DNA of 64,000 bases. Source: Halioglobus sp. Its GTDB lineage: Bacteria > Pseudomonadota > Gammaproteobacteria > Pseudomonadales > Halieaceae. Location of the stretch: positions 37,469 through 101,468 of the forward strand of contig JBDXFZ010000144.1 in NCBI GenBank assembly GCA_039990395.1. The letters run 5' to 3'. The translations under genes were made by a program, and so were the position numbers. Of this stretch, positions 5,289-35,411 are shown in pieces (position 1 is the stretch's first letter; every line of letters starts with the position of its first letter). The notes beneath the pieces were generated by a model, which saw nothing but the letters and a program-made list of their open reading frames with translations, searched no databases and was not told the origin of the DNA.

Positions 5289-6953
5289 ATGGCCCAGTAC
5301 GTTTACACAATGAATCGGGTGGGCAAAATCGTCCCACCTAAGAAGAAAATACTCGAGGACATCTCTCTATCATTCTTCCCCGGTGCGAAGATTGGCGTGC
5401 TAGGCCTCAATGGCTCGGGTAAGTCCACGCTATTGCGCATTATGGCTGGCGTAGATACCGACATTCTTGGTGAGGCGCGACCGCAACCCGGTATCAAGAT
5501 TGGTTATCTGGAGCAGGAGCCCCACCTAAACCCCGATAAAGATGTGCGTGGCAACGTGGAAGAAGGCGTGCAAGAAGCTTTGGATGCGCTAGCTGGACTG
5601 GAAAAAGTGTACGCCGACTACGCAGAGCCCGATGCCGATTTCGACACGCTGGCCAAAGAGCAGGCGCGGCTGGAAGATGTTATCCAGGCCACAGACGCTC
5701 ACAACATCGATCATCGCCTGGAAGTGGCCGCCGATGCGCTTCGCTTGCCACCCTGGGATGCAGACGTGAGCACACTGTCTGGTGGCGAACGTCGTCGAGT
5801 GGCGCTGTGCCGACTTCTACTGTCTAACCCCGACATGCTACTACTGGACGAACCGACTAACCATCTGGATGCTGAAAGCGTGGGCTGGCTGGAGCGGTAT
5901 CTGCACGATTTCCCGGGCACTGTGGTCGCGATTACTCACGACCGCTACTTCCTCGACAACGCCGCTGGCTGGATCCTGGAACTAGACAGAGGACGCGGCA
6001 TACCCTACGAGGGCAACTATTCCAACTGGCTGGATGCCAAGGAACAGCGACTGGGTCAGGAACAACGCCAGGAGGCCTCGCACCAGAAGGCCATCAAAGC
6101 AGAGCTGGAATGGGTGCGCTCAAACCCCAAGGGAAGACAGGCCAAGAGCAAGGCTCGCCTTCAGCGCTTCGAAGACCTTCAATCACAGGACTTTCAGGCC
6201 CGCAACGAAACTAACGAAATCTATATTCCCCCCGGCGCACGCCTGGGCGATAACGTGATTGAAGTCAAAAACCTGAAGAAGCAGTTTGGCGACCGCCTCC
6301 TGTTCGAAAATGTAAGCTTTACCGTACCCAAGGGCAGCATCGTGGGTATCATTGGCGCTAACGGCATGGGTAAGTCCACCTTGTTCAATATCCTCATGGA
6401 AAATGAACAGCCAGACGGTGGCGAGGTTAACATCGGCGAAACCGTGCAACTGGGCTATGTTGACCAATCGCGTGACGACCTCGACGGCGGCAAAACCGTG
6501 TGGGAGGAAATCTCAGACGGACAGGACAATATCCGAATTGGCACTTACGAGGTTGGCTCCCGTTCATACGTAGGTCGCTTTAATTTTAAGGGCTCTGATC
6601 AGCAAAAGTTTGTGAAGGATCTGTCGGGGGGCGAACGCAACCGCCTGCACCTTGCCAAGCTGCTGAAGCAAGGTGCCAATGTATTGCTATTGGACGAACC
6701 CACCAACGACCTCGACGTGGAAACTTTGCGTGCACTTGAGGAGGCCTTACTGGCGTTCCCAGGCGCGGCCATGGTGATATCGCACGATCGCTGGTTTCTG
6801 GACCGGATCGCAACCCACATACTGGCCTATGAAGACGATGGCGGCGTGGTATTCCACGAGGGCAACTTTACCGAATATGAAGAAGACCGGCACCAGCGCC
6901 TAGGCGCCGCCGCCGACCAACCTCACCGTGTGAAGTATCGTAAACTGAAGTAG
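5289..6953 (+). CDS. ettA: energy-dependent translational throttle protein EttA (ABC-F ATPase)
   Basis: 554 aa starting MAQYVYTMNRVGKIVPPKK; two ABC cassettes (GLNGSGKST, GANGMGKST; LSGGERRR/LSGGERNR). Confidence 0.92.
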   Translation: MAQYVYTMNRVGKIVPPKKKILEDISLSFFPGAKIGVLGLNGSGKSTLLRIMAGVDTDILGEARPQPGIKIGYLEQEPHLNPDKDVRGNVEEGVQEALDALAGLEKVYADYAEPDADFDTLAKEQARLEDVIQATDAHNIDHRLEVAADALRLPPWDADVSTLSGGERRRVALCRLLLSNPDMLLLDEPTNHLDAESVGWLERYLHDFPGTVVAITHDRYFLDNAAGWILELDRGRGIPYEGNYSNWLDAKEQRLGQEQRQEASHQKAIKAELEWVRSNPKGRQAKSKARLQRFEDLQSQDFQARNETNEIYIPPGARLGDNVIEVKNLKKQFGDRLLFENVSFTVPKGSIVGIIGANGMGKSTLFNILMENEQPDGGEVNIGETVQLGYVDQSRDDLDGGKTVWEEISDGQDNIRIGTYEVGSRSYVGRFNFKGSDQQKFVKDLSGGERNRLHLAKLLKQGANVLLLDEPTNDLDVETLRALEEALLAFPGAAMVISHDRWFLDRIATHILAYEDDGGVVFHEGNFTEYEEDRHQRLGAAADQPHRVKYRKLK

Positions 6954-6995
6954 CGCGATATAGTTACCCCAGACTGAGAGAGCACGAGTTTTACT

Positions 6996-7364
6996 ATGAG
7001 CGAGATTCGCAACGAGCGTCGCAGATTCACACGAGTCAGTATCGATCTTCCCACGGAAGTTCACCAGGGTGGCAGTGTTTGGAAACAACGCCTGATCGAC
7101 CTGTCTTTACTGGGGGCAGCCACCGACCAACCCGACATCTGGGACGCTCAGTACAACGAACCCTTTACCTTAATCATCCACATCAGTGATGACCAACAGC
7201 TGGAACTGCATGCCTATCTACAGCATGTAGAGAGTGGCCGGCTCGGGTTCAGTGTTCAGCATGTTGATCGAGAAAACATCGAGCCGCTACGCGATCTGAT
7301 CGCACAGCACATCGGCGATATAGCGATTCTAGATGAGGAGATGAGCCGGCTAGAGCAAAGTTAG
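6996..7364 (+). CDS. stand-alone PilZ domain protein (c-di-GMP receptor candidate)
   Basis: 122 aa with RRRFTR (RxxxR) and DLSLLG (D/NxSxxG) motifs at the canonical spacing. Confidence 0.7.
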   Translation: MSEIRNERRRFTRVSIDLPTEVHQGGSVWKQRLIDLSLLGAATDQPDIWDAQYNEPFTLIIHISDDQQLELHAYLQHVESGRLGFSVQHVDRENIEPLRDLIAQHIGDIAILDEEMSRLEQS

Positions 7365-7493
7365 CTTTGTTCACCAAGCAGGTTGAATTGACGATAGAAA
7401 TCTGGGGTTGTCACCGAGGCAGAGCCAGCCTGTTGCGAGAAAAATCTGGCTTCGGACCAAATGCCTTAGCCAGCAGTTAGCTAGTGCTAGAGG

Positions 7494-8537
7494 CTATTGC
7501 AAAAAGAAGTAGGCTCCAGCAGCAACCGCCAGCCCTACTACAATCAATGCCACAATTTTTGCCCCTGATCCATTTGAGGCAGTGTTACCTGAATCTCCGC
7601 CAGCTGCCTCAACTGGAGCCGCACCTGCTGTTCCACCCAGCGCGGAATGAAAAACGACTGTTGCCATCCCCAGTGTTATCTCATCGCCATCGGCAAGATA
7701 CGCCGTCAAACGCTTCTCACCATTTACGAATATGCCATTGGCTGAAACAAGATTTACAAGGCGCCAACGGCCGCCTTGATGCACCAACTGAGCGTGACGA
7801 CCTGAAACACTCTCTTCTGTCAGCACAACTTCACATCGTTCCTCGCGGCCTATCTCCCATACATCAGACTCAGCAGTACCACCTGGCTGGAGTTCGAATA
7901 CGGCACCGGCACTCTCACCCTCACTCACAACAATCAGGTGAGGCAAATCAGACGCGCGCCCTACATCAGCAGCGCTAACACCTGGCGCGATATCATCTAA
8001 CGAAAGTACCCGTGTTTCTTCACCGGTACCCGTATCTACCCAACTTCCAGGCAGATCGAAGCTGCCCGATGCTACCGCGGCGGGTTCGCTTTTAGGCTCG
8101 GGCTCAGGGGGTTTTTCGTCTGCCTTTTCTGCCGCTGGCTCACTTGGTGGGGCGGTGGATGGTGCAGGCTCAGGCTCTGGAATATCTACAACCGTGGCGT
8201 CGTCCATTTCTACTACGGTGGCGTCAAGGTCTTCGTCTGAGCCCTGCGTTTCGAGTTTAAAGCTGTGTTTCTCAAAGCTGATCTCATCGCCACCATAGGC
8301 CTGCGTCGGCTTCTCTATACGCAATCCATTAACGCGAGTGCCATTGGAAGAACCCAGATCCTCGATCATTACTTTCTTGGCTTCTACCTTAATCACCGCA
8401 TGATTTCGGGAAACTTTGGCGTCGTCTATGGTAAGCCCGCAGTCAGCCGAACGGCCCACAATGGTCTCTCCCTCTAGCATTACCGCCTCACCTTCTGAAG
8501 GTACCAGCTTGGCAACAAATTCCTGATTTTCGAGCAT
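7494..8537 (-). CDS. dual FHA-domain protein, C-terminally membrane anchored
   Basis: FHA1 is GRSADCGLTIDDAKVSRNHAVI...SSNGTRVNG. FHA2 is GREERCEVVLTEESVSGRHAQL...SANGIFVNG. A Pro/Glu-rich linker joins them, and the C-terminal TM is IVALIVVGLAVAAGAYFFL. Start set at MLENQE (ATG 8535-8537); the track ORF's longer start would overlap the PP2C gene. Confidence 0.8.
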   Translation of the reverse strand: MLENQEFVAKLVPSEGEAVMLEGETIVGRSADCGLTIDDAKVSRNHAVIKVEAKKVMIEDLGSSNGTRVNGLRIEKPTQAYGGDEISFEKHSFKLETQGSDEDLDATVVEMDDATVVDIPEPEPAPSTAPPSEPAAEKADEKPPEPEPKSEPAAVASGSFDLPGSWVDTGTGEETRVLSLDDIAPGVSAADVGRASDLPHLIVVSEGESAGAVFELQPGGTAESDVWEIGREERCEVVLTEESVSGRHAQLVHQGGRWRLVNLVSANGIFVNGEKRLTAYLADGDEITLGMATVVFHSALGGTAGAAPVEAAGGDSGNTASNGSGAKIVALIVVGLAVAAGAYFFLQ

Positions 8538-8548
8538 ATCGATCTCTC

Positions 8549-9574
8549 TTACCGCCCTGTCACAATAAGCCACGCCAGGTAAGCAGCGGCTACTACCGTC
8601 ACCGTGGTCATTCCTATCCAAAATGTTCGTGAACGCGATTTGCGCTTTGCTTCCTTCACCGCGAGTTTGCGCATTGCTTCAACCTGCGCCACCGGTATCA
8701 TCTGCGTAGCGCCCGCACCCTTTGGTGCTACCCGTCGCACTCCCGCCGGTTGCGCTGGCGCACGGTCAAGCTCAGGTAGGCCACTATACTTGCCCGTAGA
8801 AGGATCAAAGCTCCATACCGGCTCCGGTCGCTGTTGCACTGATCCTCGCACGGACTCATCCGCCTCCACCAGAACTACCGTTACGTTGTCACGTCCCCCG
8901 GCATCCAGTGTCGACTGGATCAGGGCCTGGCAACGTTCCGTCAACGTTTCTCCGGAGCGAAGTATGTCGATAATCTGCTGATTTTCCAACACATCGTTAA
9001 GCCCATCGCTACACAGCAGAAGTATCTCACCTGCGTTGATACGACCGGCAATAGCGCCTATATCGAGGTTGTCCTCGCTTTGCAAACCAACAGCCTGAAC
9101 AATCACATTCTTGCGAGGATGGTTACGCGCTTCCTCGATCGTAATCCGACCCAGTTCCAACTGGGCAGCCACAAACGAGTGATCTCTAGTCAATAAATGA
9201 AGCGAACCATCCCACAGGTAGGCGCGGCTGTCGCCCACCCAGTCAATACGATATTCGGCGCCCTGCATACGCATAGCCACCACTGTAGACGCCATGCCGG
9301 GCTTGCCCTTGCCTGCTTCCAGAGCGGCCATCACGTCGTCATTGGCGTTGCGGATGGCCTCTTCCAAACCTAACCCGGCACCAAGATCTCTCTCGATGCT
9401 TTCGCAGGTGATGCCACTGGCAATCTCACCTGCGTGATGACCGCCCACACCATCTGCCACCAATAGCAAACCAATTGATTCATTAATCAGAAATGCATCT
9501 TCGTTATGCTTGCGCCGAGCGACATCGGTTTGTCCGGCACTGCTGATCCCCGGAGCAAGCTGCACAATACTCAT
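8549..9574 (-). CDS. PP2C-family (PPM) Ser/Thr protein phosphatase, C-terminal TM anchor
   Basis: 341 aa with RKHNEDAF, VADGVGGHHAGEIAS, LLCSDGL and GGRDNVTVV motifs. C-terminal TM is TTVTVVAAAYLAWLIV. ATGA overlap with the upstream cytochrome gene. Confidence 0.85.
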   Translation of the reverse strand: MSIVQLAPGISSAGQTDVARRKHNEDAFLINESIGLLLVADGVGGHHAGEIASGITCESIERDLGAGLGLEEAIRNANDDVMAALEAGKGKPGMASTVVAMRMQGAEYRIDWVGDSRAYLWDGSLHLLTRDHSFVAAQLELGRITIEEARNHPRKNVIVQAVGLQSEDNLDIGAIAGRINAGEILLLCSDGLNDVLENQQIIDILRSGETLTERCQALIQSTLDAGGRDNVTVVLVEADESVRGSVQQRPEPVWSFDPSTGKYSGLPELDRAPAQPAGVRRVAPKGAGATQMIPVAQVEAMRKLAVKEAKRKSRSRTFWIGMTTVTVVAAAYLAWLIVTGR

Positions 9575-10875
9575 AAGGAATCCCTAAGTTTTCGCGACAT
9601 CACTGCAAACTGTTTGGGAACAAAGACATTCTCGTCTGTGACAGTGGCAAACAGCTGGTCGAGTTGCTGTTCGTAGCTACCCTGATCATCCAGAGTGATT
9701 GTAATAGTTTCAATGGCCAGAAAAATTTGTTCCGCAGAGGTGAAATGCCTAAAGTCGCCTGCGCCTGCGCGCTCCGCCAGCTGCTGACGTAATAGTTTTA
9801 AATCAGCTGTTTGATACGACCGATTGCCCAACTGCTCAACCAGGGGTTCTAGCACAGCAACAAGAGTTTTAGACTCAGCCACCACTGCACTACGAGACTT
9901 GACTGACTGCACATGTAATGCCACTCGACCCTGTGCAACCTTAGTAGCTGCCGGCGATCCTAGGGCGTTTAACACAGCTTCCAATACCAAAAGAGTTCCG
10001 TCGTTTAACCGGACACTACCCGGCGGTAGCGCTCGACTTCCCCCCTCCGACTCCCAGCGCAGGTCATTCATAGGATGATGGCACGAGTGACATTGATAAA
10101 AGGACAGTTCCGGCATGAGCGTGTCGCCGCCAAACCAATCGGTCTGCAGGAGCTCCAACGACTGGATGCTGGTCAATACCAATCCAGAAAGCCACATGTT
10201 TACCGACGGCGTATATGGCTTACGCTGTGAGTAGTCGGTGTCCACCTCGTAGTGGGCGGGCTGATTAACGGTAAAGGTTTCCAGTTCGAAACTTAACCGG
10301 GGATGGCCTGCGCCCATGATTGCATGCGTTGCAAATTTGTTTCGCGTACCCAGATGACAAGACAAGCACAATCTTGCCCGCGCGGCTGGCTGCTCCGTTG
10401 GATACATGCCAGCCGCTACGTTGTCCGCATGCGACGTCCCCTGCTCGGCATGACTCTGCAACCACTGACCCGAACCACCATGGCAGGCTTCGCAACCCAC
10501 ACCATCAGAGATCTGGAAACGCCTACCTCTACTCTCCACTGCTACATTATCTGCATGGCAATCCAGGCAGATATCCGCCGCATGTGCACTCGGTAAACCC
10601 AGCTTTGCTGCCATGGCCTGCGATTGCTGTGTTTGCAGCGTGCGGTAAGCGCGCGAGTGGAAATCCTCGCGCAACCATATCCGGTATTCATTCAACCAGA
10701 CGGTAGACTCGGGATCAGGACTGACCTTACCGTGACAGACGCTGGTTGCGCACGTCGCAACGCCTTCGTGCACATTCTGCGCTGTTTCAGGCAACAGTTG
10801 GGCGTGCACCTGTACAGCGCAACACACTGCCCCTAGCCACGCTATAAGCGCTAAGGCTTGTTTTCGACAAACCAA
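9571..10875 (-). CDS. periplasmic pentaheme c-type cytochrome (c554/c3-like)
   Basis: Signal peptide present. Heme motifs CATSVCH (CX4CH, as in cytochrome c3), CLDCH, CEACH, CLSCH and CHSCH. TTG start overlaps the upstream gene by 25 nt. Confidence 0.75.
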   Translation of the reverse strand: MVCRKQALALIAWLGAVCCAVQVHAQLLPETAQNVHEGVATCATSVCHGKVSPDPESTVWLNEYRIWLREDFHSRAYRTLQTQQSQAMAAKLGLPSAHAADICLDCHADNVAVESRGRRFQISDGVGCEACHGGSGQWLQSHAEQGTSHADNVAAGMYPTEQPAARARLCLSCHLGTRNKFATHAIMGAGHPRLSFELETFTVNQPAHYEVDTDYSQRKPYTPSVNMWLSGLVLTSIQSLELLQTDWFGGDTLMPELSFYQCHSCHHPMNDLRWESEGGSRALPPGSVRLNDGTLLVLEAVLNALGSPAATKVAQGRVALHVQSVKSRSAVVAESKTLVAVLEPLVEQLGNRSYQTADLKLLRQQLAERAGAGDFRHFTSAEQIFLAIETITITLDDQGSYEQQLDQLFATVTDENVFVPKQFAVMSRKLRDSL

Positions 10876-13800
10876 GGCTTACCCTCCTCATCAAGGAACA
10901 TTTTGCGCATTTCATCCTGGTTCAACGGCCTGGAGCCAAGACGACCGAAGACCGCTATCTGCCCGCCCGTTTCGTCTACGCCGCGATCACGCTCTAGCGG
11001 CCGACTGATTGACAACGCCGGCGACTGCGTCGGATAAACTGCTATCAATTCCGGCTTGGGCGCCGGACTGAAACCGTAAAATTTCGGCTGGCTGTCGGGC
11101 GACGTGAGCTGCACAACCTTCAGGCCAGAGCCGCCATCTGCCACATAAGCAAACAAAGAGGCGTTGGTACTGGCAACAGTGACATCGTAGCTATCACTCA
11201 GTCCATCTTTAAAGCTTTCTACGAGCTTCATCGCTTCAGGATTTTTGATATCAACGATTGTCAGGCCATCCGCGCCGCTAGCGACATAGGCAAACGTACG
11301 TGCCAGATGCAGCCGGCGTGCTTGCCCGAGCGAAATTGTGTTGTCCGGTGTGACAATCGGCTTCGATGGGTCAGTAATATCAACTACTTTCAGACCATCC
11401 GCATCTGTCACAAACAGATACCTGAACTGCTGTGCTAGAGAATGACCGTTACTCAGAGGCAGAACGCTTTCGAGCTTGGGCTCCAAAGGTTTGTCGATAT
11501 TGACTGTAACCAGACCTGCATCAGCAATGATATAGGCGTACATTCCACCAAGAACCATGTGTCGCGCACCTTTAAGCACACCCTGATCATTCCAAGTGAC
11601 CGCACGCGTGAGCTTATTGTTGCGAGGCTCTCCGTCCATGAGAGTATCGATATCAACGAGAATCAGCCCTTCTTCGCTATCGAGAATGTAGGCATAGGTA
11701 TAGAGCGGATGAAACGGCTGCTCTTCGTTAATGTCACGCATCAACTCGCCTTGGTTGCGAGACGGCTGAATCGGCTGAGTAGTCGGCAGCACAACACAGG
11801 TCGCGTTCTTGCTATCGATATGCGTATCGTGGCCCAGCCTGCTGAAGGGGGCGGTGATTATGCGCTGTGATACACCTTTGTTCGCAATGCTGGCCACATC
11901 GTAGACTTGCGTACCTTTCTCACCTTCAGCCACGAACAAATATTCTCCCCGCAACTGCAGGCATTCCGAAACGCCACTGGTATGCGGGTAACCATGCTGT
12001 AGCACGCGATCATTAGTCTGATGCTCGGCAAAATAGTCCGGATACGCATACTTTTGAAGGTAGCTACCAATCACCGCCTGTGGCTCATCCCACTCTGTTA
12101 CTTGTACACCGGTAATATGCTGTTCACCACCTACATACGCTATGTGCCCGAGAAAATTCACGAAGCCCGTACCGTACATCAGAAGCTGCGCCATGATCGC
12201 ATTGTTATCGTTGTTCTTACTTAGGTGACAATCTTCACATTGCTTTGTCTCGGTCTTTCGCACTGTATGTGCAAAATGAGGATTGAATGCCTGAGAGCTA
12301 TAGCCACTTGCTGCGATTGGTGGCTGCTGGATGTAAATCTTCTCTCGATTGGAATTAGTAGAAGAAAGCACAAGAGCAGACGTAGATCGTACGGGTGCAA
12401 TCTTTCCGCCTTTGGCCGTTTCGCGCCGGCCCAGCAAAAACATCTGGTCGCGCGCTACTTGTGGGTTGTACGTAGCGTAGTTACGTGAACTCCCACCTTC
12501 ATAATGGTGTCGCTCTGTTTTTTCGTTCGCCTGAATCGGCAGGTGACAGCCGCCGCAACTCGTTGTCCAAGAGGTATGACAGGTATAGCACTCCATCTCT
12601 TCATCTGAGTGCGCGAGCTCATCCATGCTCACCTCTGCACCCCAAGCTTGTGATGCGGTATCAGTGCTCATGGTTTTTGCGCGCGCCGCTTCTGAGTTGT
12701 AGCCCGTGTGTTCTGGGTCAACGCTATCCTTCACGAGGCTGACCTCCCACTCCAGCTCAGGATCCAGCACCGATCGTTGAATCAGCTTTTCTCCTATCCA
12801 CTCAAAACGCCGACGTCCATCTGGATTTCTAATTGCCCCTAAATCTGTGCCGCCTTCCAATGCGGCCGGGCCTGAGGTAAAGAGGTTCGGGTAGGCAGAA
12901 ACAGAGCCATGGCAATCCTTGCAATCTATTTCTACAGCGGCGGCGACTTCGCCATAAATGTGTCCATTGCCATGATTGTCTTGTGAGTAGTGGCAATCGA
13001 CACAGTGCATGCCGGCATCAAGGTGAATTGAAGACATATGAACAGCCTTCTGAAATTTATCTGGATCTTCATCGCTCACCTGCGCACCTTCAGCATCCAA
13101 CAGGTTGCCATCACGATCGCGCTTGAACACCGCGCGGAAGTTCCAGCCGTGACCATGGTAATCGGCGAACTGGGTATCTTTTAGCTCTGGATTCATCTCA
13201 GACACCGCTTTGAGAAACTCTAGGTCCGCCCACTTTCCGCGCGGCGCAGCACCCTCAGGGTTTCTCTCTAACACCTTGCGGCGCTCTTCGTCTGTTGGGT
13301 ACACCTGTTTTTCTGGCCACATAGACGGCGCGTCAGACTCGTAGTCCCACATCGTGTAACCCAAGTAACTGTTCACGAACATATTGGGCTGGTGCATATG
13401 GCAAACCATACACTGGCTGGTTGGAATTGCCCGTGTGAACTTGTGTTGCAGCGGATGTCCCGGCTCCTCTTTGGGAATCATTGGATCTACCGACTGGCTT
13501 TCCCCAATATGGCCAAACTGCGCATAGGCACCTGAGTGGCGTGGATCACGATCGTTCGCATAAACGACATGGCAGGCAGCACATCCGGAGTTACGGTAGT
13601 CACCGGGCTGATCGTTAGTACCCATAAACCAGGTATGCGGGTCATTCAATCGAGTCTTGGTAATATTAATCAGCGGCACTGAAATGCGGGCTCCCGTTCC
13701 GGGGCCACGATTACTCTGACGAAAATCTGGTCTGCCGGGTTCTTCAAGACGTTGTAACTGTCCCAGCGCATTGGGCAATCCCGTTTCTGGAAACAGGTTA

Positions 13801-14603
13801 CTGATATTACGTCCACCACGCTCAAACACCCTGAAAATATCGCCGGGTTTCACCGTCTCCCACGCGGGCAAGGGATAGAGCTCTGGTAAAATTCCTGCCA
13901 GAGTCATTTCTTCGGTAGGTATTACTGGTCCCTTTACCGCCGCACCCACGCCTTCGCGCGTATAGGACTCGCCTAAAATATAGCGTTTGAAAGGTAGTAT
14001 TCCGTTGTTGTACGAGGCTCCTCCCCACAACATGGCTGAGGTCGCCATCAAACTGCGCTCGGCAGCTTCAATGATGGGCAGATGGCAGGCCCCGCAGGCT
14101 TCTCTGGCGATGCGATAGTCCGAGGGGTTAACAAACCGCACGAACTCAGGACTTTCCCTGTTGAGCAAAGTGTAGGTTTGTTCCGGATTGGCGCTTGATG
14201 GATAGTGCCAGTCATCAGGATAACTTGGGAGAACGTGCGCTGACTCCATCGCCGCCAGGTAAGCTGGATTCGACAAACCCTCGGTCACACCCTGAGGCGC
14301 TCGCACCGTGGCGTTACCCCCGTGGCAGTCGGTACAACCCAATTTAACTGCCGGATTCATGTGCATTGTTTTTTCATCAGTACTGGTGTGACAGGTTTCG
14401 CACCCTTCCGACTTAGCCGCCATCTGTTCCTGTGTCTGACTGACCGGCGCGTTCGGCGCAGTCACGTATTGCCTCGCTACCGCCTCGCCGCCCGAAGAGC
14501 CGAGAGTAACGCTCACAGGCAATGCGACGCCGACCAGCATCAGGCTCGCTAGCCAGATTTTCATCACCGCTGAAGTTGTTGGTTTTCCCTGTGCCAAGAT
14601 CAT
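10851..14603 (-). CDS. 1250-aa decaheme c-type cytochrome fused to a C-terminal LVIVD-repeat beta-propeller
   Basis: Signal peptide present. Ten CXXCH motifs: CETCH, CTDCH, CGACH, CAACH, CMVCH, CVDCH, CKDCH, CYTCH, CGGCH, CEDCH. The C-terminal third carries GLILVDID, GLVTVNID, GLKVVDIT, GLTIVDIK and GLKVVQLT repeats. Confidence 0.8.
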   Translation of the reverse strand: MILAQGKPTTSAVMKIWLASLMLVGVALPVSVTLGSSGGEAVARQYVTAPNAPVSQTQEQMAAKSEGCETCHTSTDEKTMHMNPAVKLGCTDCHGGNATVRAPQGVTEGLSNPAYLAAMESAHVLPSYPDDWHYPSSANPEQTYTLLNRESPEFVRFVNPSDYRIAREACGACHLPIIEAAERSLMATSAMLWGGASYNNGILPFKRYILGESYTREGVGAAVKGPVIPTEEMTLAGILPELYPLPAWETVKPGDIFRVFERGGRNISNLFPETGLPNALGQLQRLEEPGRPDFRQSNRGPGTGARISVPLINITKTRLNDPHTWFMGTNDQPGDYRNSGCAACHVVYANDRDPRHSGAYAQFGHIGESQSVDPMIPKEEPGHPLQHKFTRAIPTSQCMVCHMHQPNMFVNSYLGYTMWDYESDAPSMWPEKQVYPTDEERRKVLERNPEGAAPRGKWADLEFLKAVSEMNPELKDTQFADYHGHGWNFRAVFKRDRDGNLLDAEGAQVSDEDPDKFQKAVHMSSIHLDAGMHCVDCHYSQDNHGNGHIYGEVAAAVEIDCKDCHGSVSAYPNLFTSGPAALEGGTDLGAIRNPDGRRRFEWIGEKLIQRSVLDPELEWEVSLVKDSVDPEHTGYNSEAARAKTMSTDTASQAWGAEVSMDELAHSDEEMECYTCHTSWTTSCGGCHLPIQANEKTERHHYEGGSSRNYATYNPQVARDQMFLLGRRETAKGGKIAPVRSTSALVLSSTNSNREKIYIQQPPIAASGYSSQAFNPHFAHTVRKTETKQCEDCHLSKNNDNNAIMAQLLMYGTGFVNFLGHIAYVGGEQHITGVQVTEWDEPQAVIGSYLQKYAYPDYFAEHQTNDRVLQHGYPHTSGVSECLQLRGEYLFVAEGEKGTQVYDVASIANKGVSQRIITAPFSRLGHDTHIDSKNATCVVLPTTQPIQPSRNQGELMRDINEEQPFHPLYTYAYILDSEEGLILVDIDTLMDGEPRNNKLTRAVTWNDQGVLKGARHMVLGGMYAYIIADAGLVTVNIDKPLEPKLESVLPLSNGHSLAQQFRYLFVTDADGLKVVDITDPSKPIVTPDNTISLGQARRLHLARTFAYVASGADGLTIVDIKNPEAMKLVESFKDGLSDSYDVTVASTNASLFAYVADGGSGLKVVQLTSPDSQPKFYGFSPAPKPELIAVYPTQSPALSISRPLERDRGVDETGGQIAVFGRLGSRPLNQDEMRKMFLDEEGKPWFVENKP

Positions 14604-14612
14604 TGTCGCCCC

Positions 14613-16496
14613 TTAGAAAGTCAGGATTACATTAAAAAGAACAGAGTAAGGATCTTCATCGCCGTACAGATCCTTGAAACCATCACCACCCAACAGTTGA
14701 GCGTAGGACGCTCGCACCACCACATTCTGACTCATAAACGGCCGCCAAATGACTGCTGCAGACAAATCCATGCCGATCTCTTCATCAACATTGCTTTGCG
14801 CCCGCGCTACCTCAAGTACTTCAGTCTCGGCAAACGCCAGGTAGTTGGCGTTAAATGACAAGCGCAGTTCGGGCAAAATATCCATATCAACACCACCACC
14901 AAGCAGCAAGATACCGGGATTGGTGAAGTTTGATTGCCCGTGCTCTTTGGAGGACCTAAGCGAGTTGAGGATTCCGTTGCGCTGTGACAACGCTACGCGT
15001 CCACCACCGATCAATGGCACGCCCTGCCGTATCCAATAGCTGGTATCGGCACCTGCAAACTGGGGGTTTTCGAAGATGGCATCGAAACCCTCACTCTTGC
15101 CGTCAAACGGATCATCATCGCCAGAACCATAAAGGAACGACAGGCGCGCCCGCATCCAGTCAAAGTCCATCGAAGGTTCAACCGCAAAGAAATACGCCTG
15201 AATATCTGAGTCCTCCGATCCGAAGACTGAGTCTTTCTCTTCACCTAGTGCCAAATAAGCCGAGGTTGTTAAATTGAGACGGCCAAAATGGCCGTCGCCA
15301 CTGTAGCCCAGGTAATACACGTCGTACTCTCGCAGGCGCTCCTCACCTATCGACGCAGGCCTTGCGATAAAGTCGTTGGTGTCATAAAAAATTTCGTCCT
15401 CACGATTTCGATTGTAGATGGCCGAAAATTGCGAGAAAAAACCTAGTGTAGGCTCATCCTGAAAATAGAGGTTCGCAACGTAAACATCGTCGTCGCGCAG
15501 AGACTCGGTAACATCGTTCAAACCGGAATTAGTATCTTTCTCCATCCGCCGGAACCAGGCAAGATTATACTGATAGCGGTTGTTGTCGCGCGTACCGAAG
15601 AGGCGAACGCCAAACGGAGAGTCCTGAAAAAGAAAGCCCCTGAAGTCACTAGAGAATGGCTGAATACCCACACGCACACTATCGAAATCGTAGCGCTCAG
15701 AGACATCTCTTAAGTGTTTATCTACAAACGCTGCTTGAATACCAATGTGATTGTCTTCTCGGGTTCGACCAATCGCCGGATCAGCATTCGTGCCTAGTGT
15801 TTCATCCAACTTCGTATAGTTGTAGTTGAATACAGGCGTGAACCTAAACTCCCAATCCGGGGGTCTGAACACAGTATCGCCCTGATAGTACACAAGCTCT
15901 ACTGCCAGATTCTGATTAATCAGCGTTTGGTCGAGGCCACCCAGTACATCTAGCGAGCCTGGGCTGTTTGTCGTTTGTACTCCAACAGGCGTTGGCACTT
16001 CACGAACTTCGACAACCGTGTCGGAGATGACCGCCACATTGAAGAACCAGTCATCGTGGATCGGTTTGTCGCCCTTAATCGTATTTTGATCATAGGGATT
16101 AAACCAGTTGTCTTCATAACCCAGGCTGTCGACTATGCGCCAGCGATCGGGAATCGGCACGGCCTCAACATACTGCTCGGCCGTAGGACGGGGAATCGGT
16201 GAATAGCGACGTGGTAAAACAGTTCGTTCACGCGCTACGGGTGTTTCGCGTAATACTTCACCTGTCTCTTCATTAACCACCGTTTCCCGATACTCGCAAT
16301 CCCGGTTGGAGCCACCCGCCCTGCGACGTCCGCTACGCGCACGGTCTCGCACATCTTTATCATCACAGGCAGGCAAAGCGGTGTCAGCCGTTTCTGATTG
16401 TGCCGACGCATTTATGGGTGCTGCCAATATCATTAGCGCAAATGCAAAAGCTATGGAAGTTGTGAGAACAGGCCGTAACGAGGTTGTAGTAGTCAT
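14613..16496 (-). CDS. large outer-membrane beta-barrel protein (porin-like candidate)
   Basis: 627 aa. Signal peptide ...APINASA-QSE. Alternating amphipathic Tyr/Gly/Asp-rich segments and a C-terminal ...FNVILTF with terminal Phe. No family recognised. Confidence 0.6.
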   Translation of the reverse strand: MTTTTSLRPVLTTSIAFAFALMILAAPINASAQSETADTALPACDDKDVRDRARSGRRRAGGSNRDCEYRETVVNEETGEVLRETPVARERTVLPRRYSPIPRPTAEQYVEAVPIPDRWRIVDSLGYEDNWFNPYDQNTIKGDKPIHDDWFFNVAVISDTVVEVREVPTPVGVQTTNSPGSLDVLGGLDQTLINQNLAVELVYYQGDTVFRPPDWEFRFTPVFNYNYTKLDETLGTNADPAIGRTREDNHIGIQAAFVDKHLRDVSERYDFDSVRVGIQPFSSDFRGFLFQDSPFGVRLFGTRDNNRYQYNLAWFRRMEKDTNSGLNDVTESLRDDDVYVANLYFQDEPTLGFFSQFSAIYNRNREDEIFYDTNDFIARPASIGEERLREYDVYYLGYSGDGHFGRLNLTTSAYLALGEEKDSVFGSEDSDIQAYFFAVEPSMDFDWMRARLSFLYGSGDDDPFDGKSEGFDAIFENPQFAGADTSYWIRQGVPLIGGGRVALSQRNGILNSLRSSKEHGQSNFTNPGILLLGGGVDMDILPELRLSFNANYLAFAETEVLEVARAQSNVDEEIGMDLSAAVIWRPFMSQNVVVRASYAQLLGGDGFKDLYGDEDPYSVLFNVILTF

Positions 16497-16498
16497 CG

Positions 16499-18472
16499 CT
16501 ATTTACCTCCACACACGTTCTGCTGATCACTATCGATATAGGGCGTCTGCGGACACTGAATATATCTCAGTCTTTCTCCCATGGGCGCTAGCCTATCGGC
16601 ACGTATTTCGGGAGGTGCGTTATTAATGCTGTTTCCGAGCTGCTGGCCGGCCTCATCCAGTCCCAGGAAAGCAATCATGTCATCCTGATCGATACCATCG
16701 CCAGAAACACCGATGCCGCCCACCAACTGATTACCTCGGTAGATAGGCACACTACCTGGAAAAATCTGAATACCATTTGCGATTCTGGGCGCTGCGGCAT
16801 CGGGACAATTTGACTGGACGTCCTGATCAGTTGCACCTGCAGCAAACAACACGTGGGTAAAGATGCTGTTAATCGTCAGATCAAGCTGTAACCCGGTCGA
16901 AAAAACACTCCATTCATCGTTTGCGAAGGGCTTACTGAACGGACCACTGGGATTCCCCCTAATGCCATCGGGGTAGAATGGCCGCGACAGATTGCCACCC
17001 GCTCTGTCAGAAAAAGCCGTACCGTCTGTCAGTGCATTCGGGCCCACAAATGCCTGCACTTGATCAACATAGGTGGGAATAAACACTTCGGCTTTGGGAG
17101 ACAGATCTGGATTTAAGTAAACCGCGGGGGTTGTGATTGCCCGCAAGAACGCGGCCGCGTCGCGTGAGGAAAAAAGCGCAGCTGTACGCGCTTTCTGCAG
17201 CGAAACATCGGCACCAAAAACCGGGGCATCAGCCGAACGGACAACTCCCAAAATTACACCCTGACTATCAACTACGGAGATAGTCACTCTGGCGGGCGTA
17301 CCAATCGGTCGGCGTATTTGCGCCCGGCTGCGGGCCGCGACTACCAGCGCGCTTTCAAGCAGCGTGGCTACCTCGCTGGCCGACAACGGAGCCACGGGAA
17401 GCGTGCCGCCATCGGAGCCGCCTCTGGGCGGGAAGCGATTGTTGTTGTCTTCGTCTACGAATACGAACGATTCTATACTTGCCAATGCACCTGCCCTGAT
17501 ACCGGATGCCGGTGTGCCAAATGCGGTGCCTGCAATAATGCGTCCGCCACCATAACCTTGAACATCAACAAGATTGCCACGGTCTACCAACGAATCGTAA
17601 GCAGGTGCTTGCTCCGGAGACACTGGCAAATTGCCAAACTCAACATCCGTAAAGCGAAGAGTTTTTCCCTCAACGGTAATTCGGTCGGCACGCCTGTCAC
17701 GAGGCGCTGCAAAATCGTAGGTCGCAGCCAAGGCTATTTGCTCATCTATATCACGATCGTCATTGAGAATATTCTTATCGATTGTGTAGCGACCATCGGC
17801 AATGACGCCTACACCACCGACCGGTGTGCCAGATTTATAAAGCGGAAAACCACCTGGATCTGCTGACAAACCCAGCGGGGAACGCTGAGGTCCTACGTTA
17901 CTGCCCGCCGAAGCGCCGGACAGCACAAAATCAGAGCACGCGAGCTGACTAAACTGCACCCCAAACAACGGGCCGGCAGGTTGGTTCTCTTCGCCTGGGT
18001 TGAAGTGCTCCTGAACAATTTGATTAGCGGTACGGCTGGAGAACGCATTGCCTTCGCTAGATAAGTAGGCGCCGGTTACCGCCTTGGTGATTGCAGCAAG
18101 CGCTCCCGCATTGGTGCCGGCTGGTAGCACAACTCCTTCAAGACCGGTGCTGATCGTAGTGGGAAAAGTCGTGCCTATCTCAACTGCGGCTCCTTGGACA
18201 GCCATCCTGTGAATAGCCAATACGTTGCCTACGCGATCTACCACGGCGATCGTCGCCTCAACACCCAACGCCTCTGCTTGGGCTATTCCCTGCGCCAGAA
18301 CCTGCTTTACATCAGCTATCGTAAGCGATGTTGATTGCGTAGCACACTGACCCACACACGGTGTCGAACTATCATCTGTCGCGGGTGACGCCCCTGCGCT
18401 ACTGCCACCGCTGCCACCCCCCCCACACGCGGTGAGTAACAACAAGCCGGCCGCACATCCAAGTAACCTCAT
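16499..18472 (-). CDS. lipoprotein with two GlcG/HbpS-like (DUF336) heme-binding-type domains
   Basis: Lipobox LLLTAC followed by a Gly/Ser linker. Domain 1 is LTIADVKQVLAQGIAQAEALGVEATIAVVDRVGNVLA...GGVGVIADG. Domain 2 is VTISVVDSQGVILGVV...GGIGVSGDGIDQDDMIA. Confidence 0.65.
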   Translation of the reverse strand: MRLLGCAAGLLLLTACGGGGSGGSSAGASPATDDSSTPCVGQCATQSTSLTIADVKQVLAQGIAQAEALGVEATIAVVDRVGNVLAIHRMAVQGAAVEIGTTFPTTISTGLEGVVLPAGTNAGALAAITKAVTGAYLSSEGNAFSSRTANQIVQEHFNPGEENQPAGPLFGVQFSQLACSDFVLSGASAGSNVGPQRSPLGLSADPGGFPLYKSGTPVGGVGVIADGRYTIDKNILNDDRDIDEQIALAATYDFAAPRDRRADRITVEGKTLRFTDVEFGNLPVSPEQAPAYDSLVDRGNLVDVQGYGGGRIIAGTAFGTPASGIRAGALASIESFVFVDEDNNNRFPPRGGSDGGTLPVAPLSASEVATLLESALVVAARSRAQIRRPIGTPARVTISVVDSQGVILGVVRSADAPVFGADVSLQKARTAALFSSRDAAAFLRAITTPAVYLNPDLSPKAEVFIPTYVDQVQAFVGPNALTDGTAFSDRAGGNLSRPFYPDGIRGNPSGPFSKPFANDEWSVFSTGLQLDLTINSIFTHVLFAAGATDQDVQSNCPDAAAPRIANGIQIFPGSVPIYRGNQLVGGIGVSGDGIDQDDMIAFLGLDEAGQQLGNSINNAPPEIRADRLAPMGERLRYIQCPQTPYIDSDQQNVCGGK

Positions 18473-20166
18473 TGTTCGAGTTCCCCCCTCGCTAATATTG
18501 AGCGAGTTCCATCAGATTGATGAAACGCATGGCAGCCCACGCAGTCCACTGCACTGAATCCCTTATCCTGAGAATGGCAGGTAAGACAGTTGTCCTGTCC
18601 GGGGATGAGAACATCACTAGCCTTCTCCGAAACGGAGGCCTCGTGGCAGGTTTCGCAGACCTCGTCTTCGTCTCCGGCAAGACTCAAATGACTCACGTGA
18701 TCAAAGCGGCTCTTGGGATACCAGTCGTCTATAATTTTTACTGGCTGAACGAACCAGCGATCACTTATGTCGGCAAGCCCCGTATCCATCACTTCATGAC
18801 AGGTGATACATCCTGTCTCTGCAAACTGATACTCAGCTTCTTTAAGTGCTTCGGCGCGACCACAGTCCAGCCCCGAACCCTGACATTCAGCCAGCCCTTC
18901 ACGTTTCCCTGGAACTCGCCTTGGCTTGGTTGCTGCACGCTGCTGCCTTAACACCGGATCGGTAAACTCTCTAATAAAATGCGCTTCCATCGCGACAATC
19001 GCTTCACGCAAGTTACCGTGTGGCAGCTCAATGTCTGGCTCAAAAACATCAAAATTGAGCGTGTGGCATGAACGGCAGTGCTGATCCATAGTAATCGGTT
19101 CAAAGTGTTCGCCATCGTCTTTCAGGGTATGGCAAGAGTCGCACTGAAGTGCATCCCCACTCTGTGCATCCTGTACCTTGTCGATATCCAGATGCACTGT
19201 GTGCGTGAACTTCAAATTTGATGCTTCTGCAATTTCACCTTCGCCCCGCCTTACGCGTTCAGTTGCCCAACCATGCGCTCCGCCGGGCCCCTGCGCAGTA
19301 AGCAACGACACGCGAAACTCCGGATGCGCAGCCTGCGTAAACGCTGAAACGCTGCCTGGTAGTGCAGCCATAGAAGTAACCCAAGTATCAGGGTCGGCGT
19401 GGCAATCTACGCACAAGCCATTATCCCGATTCACTATCTGAGGTGGCTCGTTGTGTTCGCGGTGACAACTACCACACCTTGCTTCCGCGAACACCTCAGT
19501 CTCGTGTAGCGAAACATCAACATGTTCACGCAGGTTTCGGTGACAATCCAGACACGTATCATCTTTTACCATTTTGAAAGGCTCAACGTGACACGCCTGA
19601 CAATCTTCGCTGATACCGGCGGTCTGATGCGCAGCTGCCAGCGGGCCTGAAGACCAGACTCCATCGTCAGGAAGGGGCGTCTGACGCAGCATAGAGGCAA
19701 GCTGGGGTGACAGCATGCCTCCAAGCGGTATCAGCAAAAACAGAGCCATCACGACCAGCAGTAGAATCCAGCTCAGGCGCCGAACGTTCCATATTCTGCT
19801 CTGCAACTCCATCCCATCAAGGAGAAAGGACGCTGGGGAGCTTGAGAGCGGCGTCTGCTCCAGCGCAAAATCAAATCCAACGGGGGCCGCCACCACCTCG
19901 AATCGAAAACCGCCAAATTCAAAATTGTCGCCTGCGGCAAGAGCTGCCTTGCTCGTTAATTTCTGATTGACGGTGAGCTGCGCTCGCTTTGACGTTATCT
20001 GCCAGTTATCGCCAGACGATCGCCAAATCTGAACACTACCCTTAGCGCCAACAATTTGAACCAGCGCGTTCTCGTCTCCGCCAAGAGTAAGGCTGTCTGC
20101 CTGAAACTCTGTTTCGGCAGCCTCGGCACTTTCACGACCCGTCTTCTTTCTGATAAGAAAATACAT
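18469..20166 (-). CDS. inner-membrane-anchored decaheme cytochrome c3-family protein with a ~120-aa cytoplasmic N-terminal domain
   Basis: One TM (LSWILLLVVMALFLLIPLGGML), then ten CXXCH motifs: CQACH, CLDCH, CGSCH, CVDCH, CDSCH, CRSCH, CITCH, CETCH, CLTCH, CVGCH. ATGA overlap with the next gene. Confidence 0.8.
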   Translation of the reverse strand: MYFLIRKKTGRESAEAAETEFQADSLTLGGDENALVQIVGAKGSVQIWRSSGDNWQITSKRAQLTVNQKLTSKAALAAGDNFEFGGFRFEVVAAPVGFDFALEQTPLSSSPASFLLDGMELQSRIWNVRRLSWILLLVVMALFLLIPLGGMLSPQLASMLRQTPLPDDGVWSSGPLAAAHQTAGISEDCQACHVEPFKMVKDDTCLDCHRNLREHVDVSLHETEVFAEARCGSCHREHNEPPQIVNRDNGLCVDCHADPDTWVTSMAALPGSVSAFTQAAHPEFRVSLLTAQGPGGAHGWATERVRRGEGEIAEASNLKFTHTVHLDIDKVQDAQSGDALQCDSCHTLKDDGEHFEPITMDQHCRSCHTLNFDVFEPDIELPHGNLREAIVAMEAHFIREFTDPVLRQQRAATKPRRVPGKREGLAECQGSGLDCGRAEALKEAEYQFAETGCITCHEVMDTGLADISDRWFVQPVKIIDDWYPKSRFDHVSHLSLAGDEDEVCETCHEASVSEKASDVLIPGQDNCLTCHSQDKGFSAVDCVGCHAFHQSDGTRSILARGELEQ

Positions 20167-23547: not shown

Positions 23548-28138
<4,591 letters not shown>

Positions 28139-28201
28139 ATTCCTCTACACACAAATAAGCAACGCAGTAACTGTAAAACCAAAGAATGCATAGACGGCGC
28201 C

Positions 28202-29752: not shown

Positions 29753-29796
29753 TTTTCCCCCAACTTAGCTGACCCACCCGCTATACTTCGGCTAAA

Positions 29797-33576: not shown

Positions 33577-33679
33577 TCCAATCCCTGATGAATTTTTCTT
33601 TAACTGCTGTTCGTCCCGCGGCAAGCTGGGTATCCTAGCAGACTTCGTTGTGTACTCGTTGCACCTTTACGGTCATATC

Positions 33680-35390: not shown

Positions 35391-35411
35391 CCGAGGTAAC
35401 GCCGTGCTGTA

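Follow-up and report, generated by a model that had tools for sequence, protein, structure and literature searches.

Title: A tail-anchored PP2C phosphatase and a dual-FHA protein close a ptd/PCC4 porin-cytochrome operon in Halioglobus and may belong to a threonine-phosphorylation pathway that controls it

In the H1-T6SS pathway of Pseudomonas aeruginosa, which comprises the kinase PpkA, the PP2C phosphatase PppA, Fha1, and TagQRST as envelope proteins acting upstream, assembly is triggered when FHA binds phosphothreonine. Agrobacterium has a PpkA-TssL-Fha threonine phosphorylation pathway. In Actinobacteria, membrane-anchored PP2Cs and FHA proteins act in envelope growth or division. Rv1747 of Mycobacterium tuberculosis has an FHA-1 domain, a disordered linker with the phospho-acceptor residues T152 and T210, and an FHA-2 domain; this module is held at the membrane, and its cognate Hanks-type kinase, PknF, is encoded nearby (PMC8339232, PMC3138270). 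A porin-cytochrome gene cluster has been published as PCC4 (He et al. 2017, PMC5566968) and as ptdABCDEFG (Elbon et al., bioRxiv 10.1101/2023.11.21.568154) and is uncharacterised.

I analysed a stretch of 64,000 nucleotides (the window) from Halioglobus sp. GCA_039990395.1, contig JBDXFZ010000144.1, positions 37,469 to 101,468 of the forward strand. It holds the following features, with their basis in parentheses.

7494-8537, minus strand: tail-anchored dual-FHA protein, 347 aa (Pfam, 21-orthologue alignment, AlphaFold, start codon)
8549-9574, minus strand: tail-anchored PP2C (PPM) phosphatase, predicted, 341 aa (Pfam, motifs, hydropathy, ATGA overlap)
9571-10875, minus strand: periplasmic c554-like multihaem cytochrome, the last core ptd/PCC4 gene (Pfam Cytochrome_C554)
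10851-14603, minus strand: decahaem cytochrome fused to an LVIVD beta-propeller (Pfam LVIVD)
14613-16496, minus strand: candidate outer-membrane barrel, or porin (conserved position, 58-98% identity in related clusters)
16499-18472, minus strand: HbpS-like lipoprotein (Pfam HbpS-like, 1.4e-21)
18469-20166, minus strand: inner-membrane decahaem cytochrome (FHA-fold domain, TM helix, periplasmic haem domain)
20171-21049, minus strand: five-TM b-type (ferric-reductase-like) membrane protein (weak Pfam Ni_hydr_CYTB match)
21052-23532, minus strand: cytoplasmic fusion of an FAD/NAD(P)H oxidoreductase with two cNMP-binding domains and 4Fe-4S domains (Pfam)
24911-28138, minus strand: autotransporter with thrombospondin type 3 repeats (Pfam)
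28202-29752, minus strand: lipoprotein with Sel1 repeats and a caspase domain, Peptidase_C14 (Pfam; lipobox LTAC in the translation)
29797-30654, plus strand: alpha/beta-hydrolase, probably a lipoprotein (Pfam Abhydrolase_1)
30694-32148, minus strand: receptor-type Hanks Ser/Thr kinase, 484 aa (Pfam Pkinase, 8e-38)

The seven genes upstream of the PP2C gene in this operon are the published PCC4/ptd cluster. Both the window and the published cluster have a porin, multihaem cytochromes, a five-TM membrane protein, and an FAD/Fe-S/cNMP protein. The fusion gene of the latter (21052-23532) is the first gene of the operon, and the five-TM protein is the conserved IMP of PCC4 (PMC5566968). The decahaem-propeller protein is the best conserved Ptd protein (63-98% identity, more than 100 loci), while the porin candidate (14613-16496) matched no Pfam family. 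FHA, phosphatase, and kinase are not mentioned for PCC4 in He et al. 2017 (PMC5566968), and FHA and phosphatase are not mentioned for ptd in Elbon et al. (10.1101/2023.11.21.568154). Neither the extension by PP2C, dual-FHA, and kinase genes nor the FHA-type fold in the inner-membrane decahaem is described in these papers.

It was confirmed that the PP2C and dual-FHA genes, which the first-pass annotation had placed at the end of the cytochrome operon, are its last two genes. Their operonic linkage with the cytochromes was also claimed there and holds: the ATG of the PP2C gene overlaps with the stop codon of the c554-like gene (ATGA; TTATGAGT), and a simple promoter/terminator scan found nothing above chance level, promoter-like sites included. 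On the other hand, the dual-FHA gene had been given a TTG start (7494-8621), which would make it overlap the PP2C gene by 73 nt. The start was corrected to an ATG at 8537, which lies 11 nt past the PP2C stop codon, has a GAGAG sequence 7 nt upstream, and lines up with the starts of 20 orthologues.

The PP2C protein matches the Pfam profiles PP2C_2 (PF13672; 2.1e-12, 47.5 bits, cut-off 24) and PP2C (PF00481; 2.9e-12, 47.2 bits, cut-off 20.3). Its catalytic domain spans residues 1 to about 240 and is followed by a linker and a TM helix. As judged by 35 homologues, in which NED24-26, DGxGG41-45, GDSR114-117, SDG189-191, and DN229-230 are invariant or nearly so, every catalytic motif is intact and the protein is a predicted phosphatase. 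A single C-terminal TM helix had been proposed for both this protein and the dual-FHA protein, and hydropathy places it at residues 318-340 and 320-347, respectively (330-346 for the latter in the AlphaFold model). No signal peptide was found in either protein, and only 1-3 residues lie past each helix. Thus, the PP2C and dual-FHA proteins are tail-anchored, and their domains lie on the cytoplasmic side. The membrane-anchored PstP of mycobacteria differs in having an extracellular domain beyond its TM helix, where the window PP2C has 1-3 residues.

The dual-FHA protein matches PF00498 in two stretches (127.9 bits, 2e-37), and two domains are present in every complete orthologue. FHA1 (residues 8-98) and FHA2 (about 190-300) are separated by a disordered linker (100-190; AlphaFold pLDDT 50-62), in which at least 90% of the orthologues in an alignment of 21 share T107 and T175. 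The domains were compared for the residues that contact phosphothreonine, namely the Arg of the GR motif, the Ser and His of S-x-x-H, and the Asn of NG. FHA1 of the window has G28, R29, S43, R44, H46, and N65, and FHA2 has G230, R231, S245, H248, and N267; both keep the contacting residues and are predicted phosphothreonine readers. FHA1 is canonical in 20 of the 21 orthologues, the exception (L056) having His for Arg. The Arg of FHA2 is retained only in Halieaceae, the Spectribacter group, and locus L071 among these 21, and most lineages other than Halieaceae lack this key residue. The layout resembles Rv1747, with T107 and T175 as predicted phospho-sites only. Unlike Rv1747, which is fused to the ABC transporter it regulates, the window protein is separate and ends after one TM helix. 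Such a tail-anchored tandem-FHA adaptor represents a new family. Taken together with the PP2C, the odds slightly favour an arrangement at the cytoplasmic face of the inner membrane in which the phosphatase would be the eraser and the dual-FHA protein the reader.

The receptor kinase (30694-32148) is likely to be the writer of the pathway. It has a cytoplasmic kinase domain (residues 79-337), a TM helix (347-367), and a periplasmic tail of about 117 aa, for which no Pfam family was found; the tail of the Zhongshania orthologue gave a TPR hint, below the cut-off only. Among 40 relatives, full-length orthologues of the kinase (55-95% identity) were found only in the six genomes that have ptd, PP2C, and FHA genes together, and in five of these six the kinase gene lies 18-29 kb from the PP2C gene on the same contig. 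Kinase homologues abut the FHA gene in Spectribacter and in genomes G587 and G698.

Thus assembled, the set can be compared with the H1-T6SS pathway. In each, a TM Hanks kinase that has a periplasmic domain is encoded with a PP2C, an FHA protein, and a large envelope-spanning machine, and both are accompanied by accessory lipoprotein and outer-membrane genes, which act upstream in the H1-T6SS. However, the machine in the window is a multihaem-cytochrome/porin conduit; the reader has two FHA domains and a C-terminal anchor; the PP2C is tail-anchored; and the partners are the Sel1-caspase, hydrolase, and autotransporter proteins rather than TagQRST. In Gram-negative bacteria, FHA/PP2C/kinase sets classically go with type VI or type III secretion systems. 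Does the pair regulate such a system? Pfam Yop-YscD_cpl is matched by the FHA domains as well, a similarity at the domain level only. In contrast, TssC/VipB (PF05943) is absent from the genome, which is 100% complete, while it was detected in a control genome, and no secretion-system genes were found in the window region examined. The earlier remark that no T6SS genes are in view therefore holds genome-wide. This explanation was rejected as almost certainly wrong, the T6SS version being refuted by the absence of TssC.

The kinase, Sel1-caspase, hydrolase, and autotransporter genes flank ptd in shuffled orders in related genomes. In G587, all of these genes stand in one same-strand row. Sel1-caspase homologues (39-72% identity) flank ptd in Parahaliea, Spectribacter, and several MAGs, while that of Zhongshania lies beside a dual-FHA gene and a kinase gene, away from ptd. 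Autotransporter homologues in other lineages adjoin either ptd with PP2C and FHA genes or kinase and caspase genes, and the hydrolase co-occurs with kinase and caspase genes in five loci (L035, L042, L043, L114, and L198). The PP2C/FHA pair is one arm of this kinase/Sel1-caspase/hydrolase/autotransporter module. The Sel1-caspase lipoprotein, the hydrolase, and the autotransporter are probable periplasmic or outer-membrane partners of the kinase.

Is the pair common among ptd clusters? The first-pass annotation had stated that its idea would fail if the pair were not conserved beside the cytochrome genes in relatives; it was found to be conserved in six of the seven other ptd-holding genera of Halieaceae. 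With the order sampled evenly, a dual-FHA homologue stands on the ptd contig or an adjoining contig in 13 of 16 ptd genomes, in 12 of them at most 3 kb downstream of ptd, while a weaker homologue covering both FHA domains was found in 6 of 285 genomes without ptd. The distribution was overlaid on a tree of the decahaem-propeller protein (FastTree). All 38 scorable clusters with PP2C and/or dual-FHA genes form one clade (local support 81%), and none of the 41 scorable clusters outside it has the pair, so that 38 against 41 clusters are explained by a single state change. The initial idea that the pair is restricted to Halieaceae was overturned, since this module clade includes Halieaceae, Steroidobacteraceae, Salinisphaeraceae, Granulosicoccaceae, and other families, and spans at least six orders (Cellvibrionales, Steroidobacterales, Salinisphaerales, Chromatiales, and MAGs of Thiotrichales and Pseudomonadales). 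When the class was sampled evenly, 13 clusters were without the pair; overall, it is missing from 41 of the 79 that could be scored. Since most ptd clusters outside the clade lack it, the pair is a clade-specific accessory and not a core part of ptd. Variants occur: FHA precedes PP2C in Granulosicoccaceae and L071, L068 has its FHA gene upstream, and L059 and L063 have FHA and kinase genes without PP2C. That the dual-FHA family occurs only with ptd was rejected as well, since homologues were found in genomes without ptd and away from ptd.

The pair might serve housekeeping Ser/Thr signalling in envelope growth or division and merely be co-transcribed with the cytochrome genes. The mycobacterial fhaA-fhaB-pstP-rodA-pbpA-pknA-pknB locus similarly brings together FHA proteins, a membrane-anchored PP2C (PstP), and Hanks kinases, but its neighbours are cell-wall genes, whereas those in the window are cytochrome genes; rodA, pbpA, and division genes were not found nearby. 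A scan for a generic FHA pattern with the dual-FHA alignment gave mostly unrelated FHA proteins among the matches listed, of which L112-L116 were informative. Actinobacterial FHA-FHA-PP2C-kinase loci were numerous among these matches, but in the confirmation step of the scan the actinobacterial FHA matches listed have E values of 2e-10 or weaker versus 2e-41 for the best ptd-linked locus. A better candidate for housekeeping is a separate PP2C-kinase-FHA triad by queG, which is conserved in most relatives. In addition, an orthologue of the PP2C (at least 44% identity) is missing from 17 of 24 sampled Halieaceae genera. Since the ptd-linked pair is absent from most members of the family, it is not essential housekeeping, and this explanation seems quite improbable.

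A further FHA fold was found in the operon itself. The inner-membrane decahaem consists of an N-terminal domain (residues 1-105; 19852-20166), a TM helix (125-157), and a periplasmic haem domain. The N-terminal part, earlier described as a tail at the cytoplasmic face, proved to be an FHA-fold domain: hhalign against the dual-FHA family gave a probability of 97.9% (E 6.5e-13), and the AlphaFold model (pLDDT 94.4) has FHA domains as all of its top PDB matches, that of EssC included; Rv1747 FHA-2 is also among the structural matches. Pfam FHA is matched by 28 of 37 decahaem homologues, not including the window's copy, and Yop-YscD_cpl by 29 of the 37. The Ptd decahaem thus resembles YscD/PrgH/EscD of T3SS and EssC of T7SS in combining a cytoplasmic FHA fold, a TM helix, and a large extracytoplasmic domain; unlike the ring-building or ATPase domains of those proteins, its extracytoplasmic part is a ten-haem cytochrome. 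The phosphate-binding Arg of this domain is kept in all 29 clusters without the module versus 2 of 22 with it. A juxtamembrane Arg/Lys-Thr motif of the decahaem was considered as a general phospho-site and dropped, being present in a minority of clusters only.

Could the pair have merely hitch-hiked, serving only a self-standing envelope module with another output that landed by ptd once and was then inherited? The tree needs only one state change, and retention after a single gain could partly reflect inheritance. A complete module, with genes for dual-FHA, caspase, kinase, hydrolase, autotransporter, and PP2C proteins, is present in genome G638, which lacks ptd, and Zhongshania has a second module copy, without PP2C, distant from ptd. 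Two Halieaceae genomes of different genera (G006 and G013) have a PP2C orthologue between PilZ and radA genes without ptd or an FHA gene, and many genomes without ptd have kinases of this type. In contrast, the pair is kept in all 38 scorable members of the clade across its orders, despite divergence of the FHA proteins to 27-55% identity. Start/stop overlap with the last cytochrome gene has also persisted: in 32 related loci, the junction between the c554-like gene and the next gene is -4 in 14, -1 in 3, and 0-20 nt in 11 (28 of 32), and the junction is mostly -4 to +20 nt in the clade. The adjacency outlasts several rearrangements, and PP2C, FHA, or kinase genes adjoin ptd in two lineages outside the clade; Fontimonas has a PP2C gene and two kinase genes packed around an inverted c554-like gene, and a small TM-FHA gene adjoins the cluster in Vicinamibacteria. 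Finally, changes in the decahaem FHA domain track whether the module is present. Hitch-hiking is therefore regarded as rather unlikely.

In one ptd clade, the putative pathway has become attached to the cytochrome operon at its 3′ end, and it therefore most likely controls the Ptd conduit. Gene context supports this control well, and I lean, by a modest degree, towards a Hanks-type threonine-phosphorylation pathway that would control the assembly, clustering, or activity of the conduit. An envelope cue would activate the kinase, which would phosphorylate T107 and T175 of the dual-FHA linker and possibly cytoplasmic parts of Ptd proteins. The canonical FHA1, together with FHA2 in Halieaceae, would bind phosphothreonine and thereby form multivalent membrane-bound assemblies. 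These may bring in or position the FAD/Fe-S subunit on the cytoplasmic side, the b-type membrane protein, and the decahaem with its FHA domain, and the PP2C would reset the pathway. A more specific version is put forward only tentatively: the pathway, fed by the Sel1-caspase, hydrolase, and autotransporter proteins, might gate or organise the conduit post-translationally, with the dual-FHA protein replacing the reading role that the decahaem FHA domain has in clusters without the module.

If this pathway does control the conduit, eukaryote-like Ser/Thr signalling would for the first time be seen to govern a porin-cytochrome machine. Control by threonine phosphorylation, which is known for T6SS and mycobacterial transporters, would extend to respiratory-type electron conduits. 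The coupled kinase/phosphatase/FHA circuit would offer a genetic handle on ptd, as circuit mutants should turn the machine on or off, and the periplasmic partners of the kinase hint at the cue of the machine. The full set is present in cultured Parahaliea, Steroidobacter, Spectribacter, and Zhongshania, which makes the idea directly testable.

In one-genome-per-species collections, ptd/PCC4 was found at more than 595 loci. The hosts are marine, soil, and groundwater Proteobacteria.

The ptd cluster of the window, a multihaem-cytochrome/porin conduit cluster, has been described as PCC4 (He et al. 2017, PMC5566968) and as ptdABCDEFG (Elbon et al., bioRxiv 10.1101/2023.11.21.568154), both times with its function unknown. 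By Pfam assignment, nine genes run on the minus strand from 23532 to 7494, and the last two encode a PP2C phosphatase and a dual-FHA protein. They are given here with a receptor kinase gene of the same window.

Features of the operon, in gene order, and the receptor kinase
Gene 1, minus strand: FAD/NAD(P)H oxidoreductase fused with two cNMP-binding domains and 4Fe-4S domains
Gene 2, minus strand: five-TM b-type protein
Gene 3, minus strand: TM-anchored decahaem cytochrome
Gene 4, minus strand: HbpS-like lipoprotein
Gene 5, minus strand: outer-membrane barrel, unclassified in the Pfam run
Gene 6, minus strand: LVIVD propeller fused to a decahaem cytochrome
Gene 7, minus strand: c554-like cytochrome
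Gene 8, 8549-9574, minus strand: PP2C phosphatase, 341 aa
Gene 9, best start ATG at 8537, minus strand: two-FHA-domain protein, 347 aa
30694-32148: receptor kinase, kinase domain at residues 79-337, TM helix at 347-367, periplasmic tail of ~117 aa

The start codon of the PP2C gene overlaps with the stop codon of the c554-like gene (ATGA), and the PP2C stop codon lies 11 nt before the ATG of the dual-FHA gene, which is preceded by GAGAG. These junctions agree with the first-pass annotation, which had placed the pair at the end of the cytochrome operon. Its TTG start at 8621 for the FHA gene lacks support because 20 dual-FHA orthologues align from the ATG at 8537 (alignment A1). From 6900 to 11000, promoter-like and terminator-like sites were no commoner than in shuffled sequence. 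At the other end of the operon, an NADP-type glutamate dehydrogenase gene (gdhA, 23548-24891) directly adjoins ptd. The same adjacency was seen at L032, L036, L047, L049, L057, L064, L065, L015, and L106, across several unrelated lineages, whether or not the cluster has the PP2C/FHA module; GdhA could provide the FAD/NAD(P)H subunit with NADPH.

Neither protein of the pair has a signal peptide, and each has a single C-terminal hydrophobic helix (residues 318-340 in PP2C; 320-347 in the dual-FHA protein, placed at 330-346 in the AlphaFold model). Both are therefore predicted to be tail-anchored with cytoplasmic domains, as had been proposed from the sequence. Most lineages have the PP2C helix, and a few have lost it. 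The canonical PPM motifs NED24-26, DGxGG41-45, GDSR114-117, DH131-132, SDG189-191, and DN229-230 are all invariant in 35 homologues. The AlphaFold model of the dual-FHA protein has two confident FHA domains (8-98 and about 190-300) joined by a disordered linker (100-190), and every complete orthologue shares this architecture. All but the Spectribacter group, which has an amphipathic ...FLRRLFG tail instead, keep the C-terminal TM helix. In FHA1, the phosphothreonine-contact residues G28, S43, R44, H46, and N65 are kept in 21 of 21 A1 orthologues, and R29 in all but one (His in L056). In FHA2, S245, H248, and N267 are kept in all 21, while the GR arginine R231 is missing outside Halieaceae, the Spectribacter group, and L071. 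In the linker, A1 has an invariant P163..W166 motif and two nearly invariant threonines, T175 and T107, the latter within a consensus D-x-T-V-x-R that is duplicated as DATVV in Halieaceae.

Is the pair kept beside ptd in relatives? The window belongs to a Halioglobus species of the Halieaceae. Among 40 relatives, a c554-like gene was found in eight genomes of this family (the window's own included), and a PP2C orthologue lies immediately downstream of it in seven of the eight. In these seven, the c554-like/PP2C overlap is 4 or 1 nt, and the PP2C-to-FHA gap is 11-41 nt. In one Halieaceae genome (L021:5122-8425, G009), the phosphatase gene is duplicated in tandem, with a copy on either side of the dual-FHA gene. 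Sampling the class evenly yielded 13 ptd clusters in 12 genomes, none with the pair. The resulting impression that the pair is family-specific was overturned by the 80 loci with the greatest similarity to the decahaem-propeller protein (10851-14603). A PP2C gene and a dual-FHA gene come after the c554-like gene in many further lineages: Steroidobacter and other Steroidobacteraceae, Spectribacter and other Salinisphaeraceae, Granulosicoccaceae, Spongiibacteraceae including Zhongshania, Thiotrichales and Pseudomonadales MAGs, and several unclassified gammaproteobacterial MAGs. The junction between the c554-like gene and the next gene is -4 nt at 14 loci, -1 nt at 3, 0-20 nt at 11, and 45-153 nt at 4. 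Of 300 genomes sampled evenly across the order, 16 have ptd (again with the window's own); 13 of these have a dual-FHA homologue beside it, within 3 kb downstream in 12 and at the start of the adjoining contig in G606. A weaker homologue covering both FHA domains occurs in 6 of 285 genomes without ptd.

In a FastTree phylogeny of 100 decahaem-propeller proteins, all pair-bearing lineages fall within one 42-row clade (local support 81, sub-clades 100). Persistence beside the cytochrome genes, which had been set as a test beforehand, was thus seen both in the seven Halieaceae genomes and in this clade. One clade member, a Steroidobacteraceae MAG (L052), has a reduced cluster of three genes (HbpS-like, barrel, and decahaem-propeller), and its c554-like, inner-membrane, PP2C, and FHA genes are absent within 10 kb. 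Outside the clade, Fontimonas sp. (L079:17162-22840) has an inverted c554-like gene tightly flanked by two Hanks kinase genes and a PP2C gene, apparently a case in which Ser/Thr signalling was recruited to ptd independently. In Acidobacteriota/Vicinamibacteria (L086:2764-3333, L092:2853-3446), a divergent gene beside ptd encodes a small protein whose TM helix is N-terminal and whose FHA domain is C-terminal.

One state change on the tree suffices for the 38 module-bearing and 41 module-lacking clusters, and such a single gain would also be expected if the pair were hitch-hiking beside ptd without a functional link. The occurrence of the module without ptd and the persistence of PP2C alone in two genera point the same way. 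I regard this explanation as possible but rather unlikely, since every scorable clade member retains the pair, the pair stays translationally coupled to the last cytochrome gene, the adjacency outlasts rearrangement, and Fontimonas and Vicinamibacteria gained PP2C, kinase, or FHA genes beside ptd on separate occasions. On these genomic grounds, the same facts argue for a functional link between the pair and ptd.

The receptor kinase is a non-RD kinase as read from its translation: HSD replaces the usual HRD catalytic-loop motif, with Lys, Asp, Asn, and DFG otherwise all in place. Among the 40 relatives, full-length orthologues were found only in the six genomes with ptd, PP2C, and FHA, in five of which the kinase gene lies 18-29 kb from PP2C on the same contig. 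Zhongshania borealis has, on one strand, a dual-FHA gene followed by Sel1-caspase, autotransporter, hydrolase, and window-type kinase genes, and these gene types also occur at 24911-30654 of the window, between the kinase and the ptd operon. Homologues of the set, with shuffled orders and orientations, flank ptd, PP2C, and FHA in Parahaliea, L040, L042, L043, L053, L055, L059, L062, L063, L066, and the Spectribacter loci L064 and L065. In G587, the ptd, PP2C, FHA, kinase, caspase, and autotransporter genes stand in one unbroken row on a single strand. The set also occurs apart from ptd: G638, without ptd, has dual-FHA, caspase, kinase, hydrolase, autotransporter, and PP2C genes together; Zhongshania has an extra set without PP2C besides its ptd cluster, which has a PP2C and an FHA gene to itself; and window-type kinases occur in many genomes without ptd.

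In Halieaceae, the entire kinase-to-FHA stretch forms an island, with radA and PilZ as the backbone genes that border it. The radA neighbours (33545-36842) encode a three-DnaT-repeat (DNA-binding) protein, a phage lambda P-like replication-domain protein, and DnaB; the DnaT-like and DnaB genes are backbone, being found also in G006 or G013. These two genomes have only a TM-anchored PP2C orthologue at the radA-PilZ site (50-53% identity; L027:10041-11141 in G006, L028:9516-10634 in G013), with neither ptd nor an FHA gene there, and neither a c554-like gene nor a window-kinase orthologue was found in their genomes. In G001, of the window's genus, an 11-kb insert between the dual-FHA gene and PilZ (L031:5867-16736) is another kinase-plus-caspase set at this spot: it has genes for a second Hanks kinase of 505 aa and a WD40-caspase protein, along with an OmpA/DUF4384 protein and a ShlB/TpsA two-partner secretion pair.

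A housekeeping role for the pair is unlikely, since most Halieaceae genera lack the ptd-linked pair, and the window genome has a further PP2C-kinase-FHA triad, next to queG, that is widely conserved. The triad lies outside the window (G000:C144:126627-129263, equal to L030:6627-9263), consists of a PP2C with a C-terminal TM helix, a 289-aa kinase, and a single-FHA protein, and is kept in most relatives; it is likely a housekeeping Ser/Thr module. A T6SS role was excluded because TssC was not found in the complete window genome, which extends genome-wide the earlier remark that no T6SS genes are in view. The best reading would be a threonine-phosphorylation pathway attached to the conduit, in which the receptor kinase may be the writer, the tail-anchored tandem-FHA protein the reader, and the tail-anchored PP2C the eraser, with the Sel1-caspase, hydrolase, and autotransporter as putative upstream envelope partners. 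The T6SS has a threonine-phosphorylation pathway of its own, PpkA/PppA/Fha1/TagQRST, and the window pathway, which I infer from genes, would be its parallel. The dual-FHA reader likewise parallels the tandem-FHA module of Rv1747, whose linker threonines are phosphorylated by PknF (PMC8339232, PMC3138270).

The words 'FHA' and 'phosphatase' are absent from the texts of both ptd papers, as is 'kinase' from that of He et al., and a literature full-text search gave no paper that brings multihaem cytochromes together with FHA and PP2C. What comes closest is a Gallionellaceae pangenome paper (PMC10734462), which lists a ten-haem 'Forkhead-associated protein' in a table. The individual components are of known kinds; undescribed in the searchable literature are the attachment to a porin-cytochrome conduit, the tail-anchored tandem-FHA adaptor, and the caspase/autotransporter partners.

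It was revealed that the inner-membrane decahaem cytochrome also has an FHA domain. Its residues 1-105 (19852-20166) matched the dual-FHA family in a profile-profile comparison (probability 97.9%, E 6.5e-13). Pfam FHA is matched individually by 28 of 37 decahaem homologues, the window's copy not being among them. The AlphaFold model of this domain has a pLDDT of 94.4, and its 50 best PDB matches are all FHA domains, including GarA, OdhI, EssC, FhaA, and Rv1747 FHA-2. In an alignment of the domain (A2), all 29 clusters that lack the module have the phosphate-binding Arg of the GR motif, against just 2 of the 22 with the module. This coincidence of the Arg change with the arrival of a separate dual-FHA protein may represent only one or a few events on the tree, and it is therefore suggestive but carries no statistical weight.
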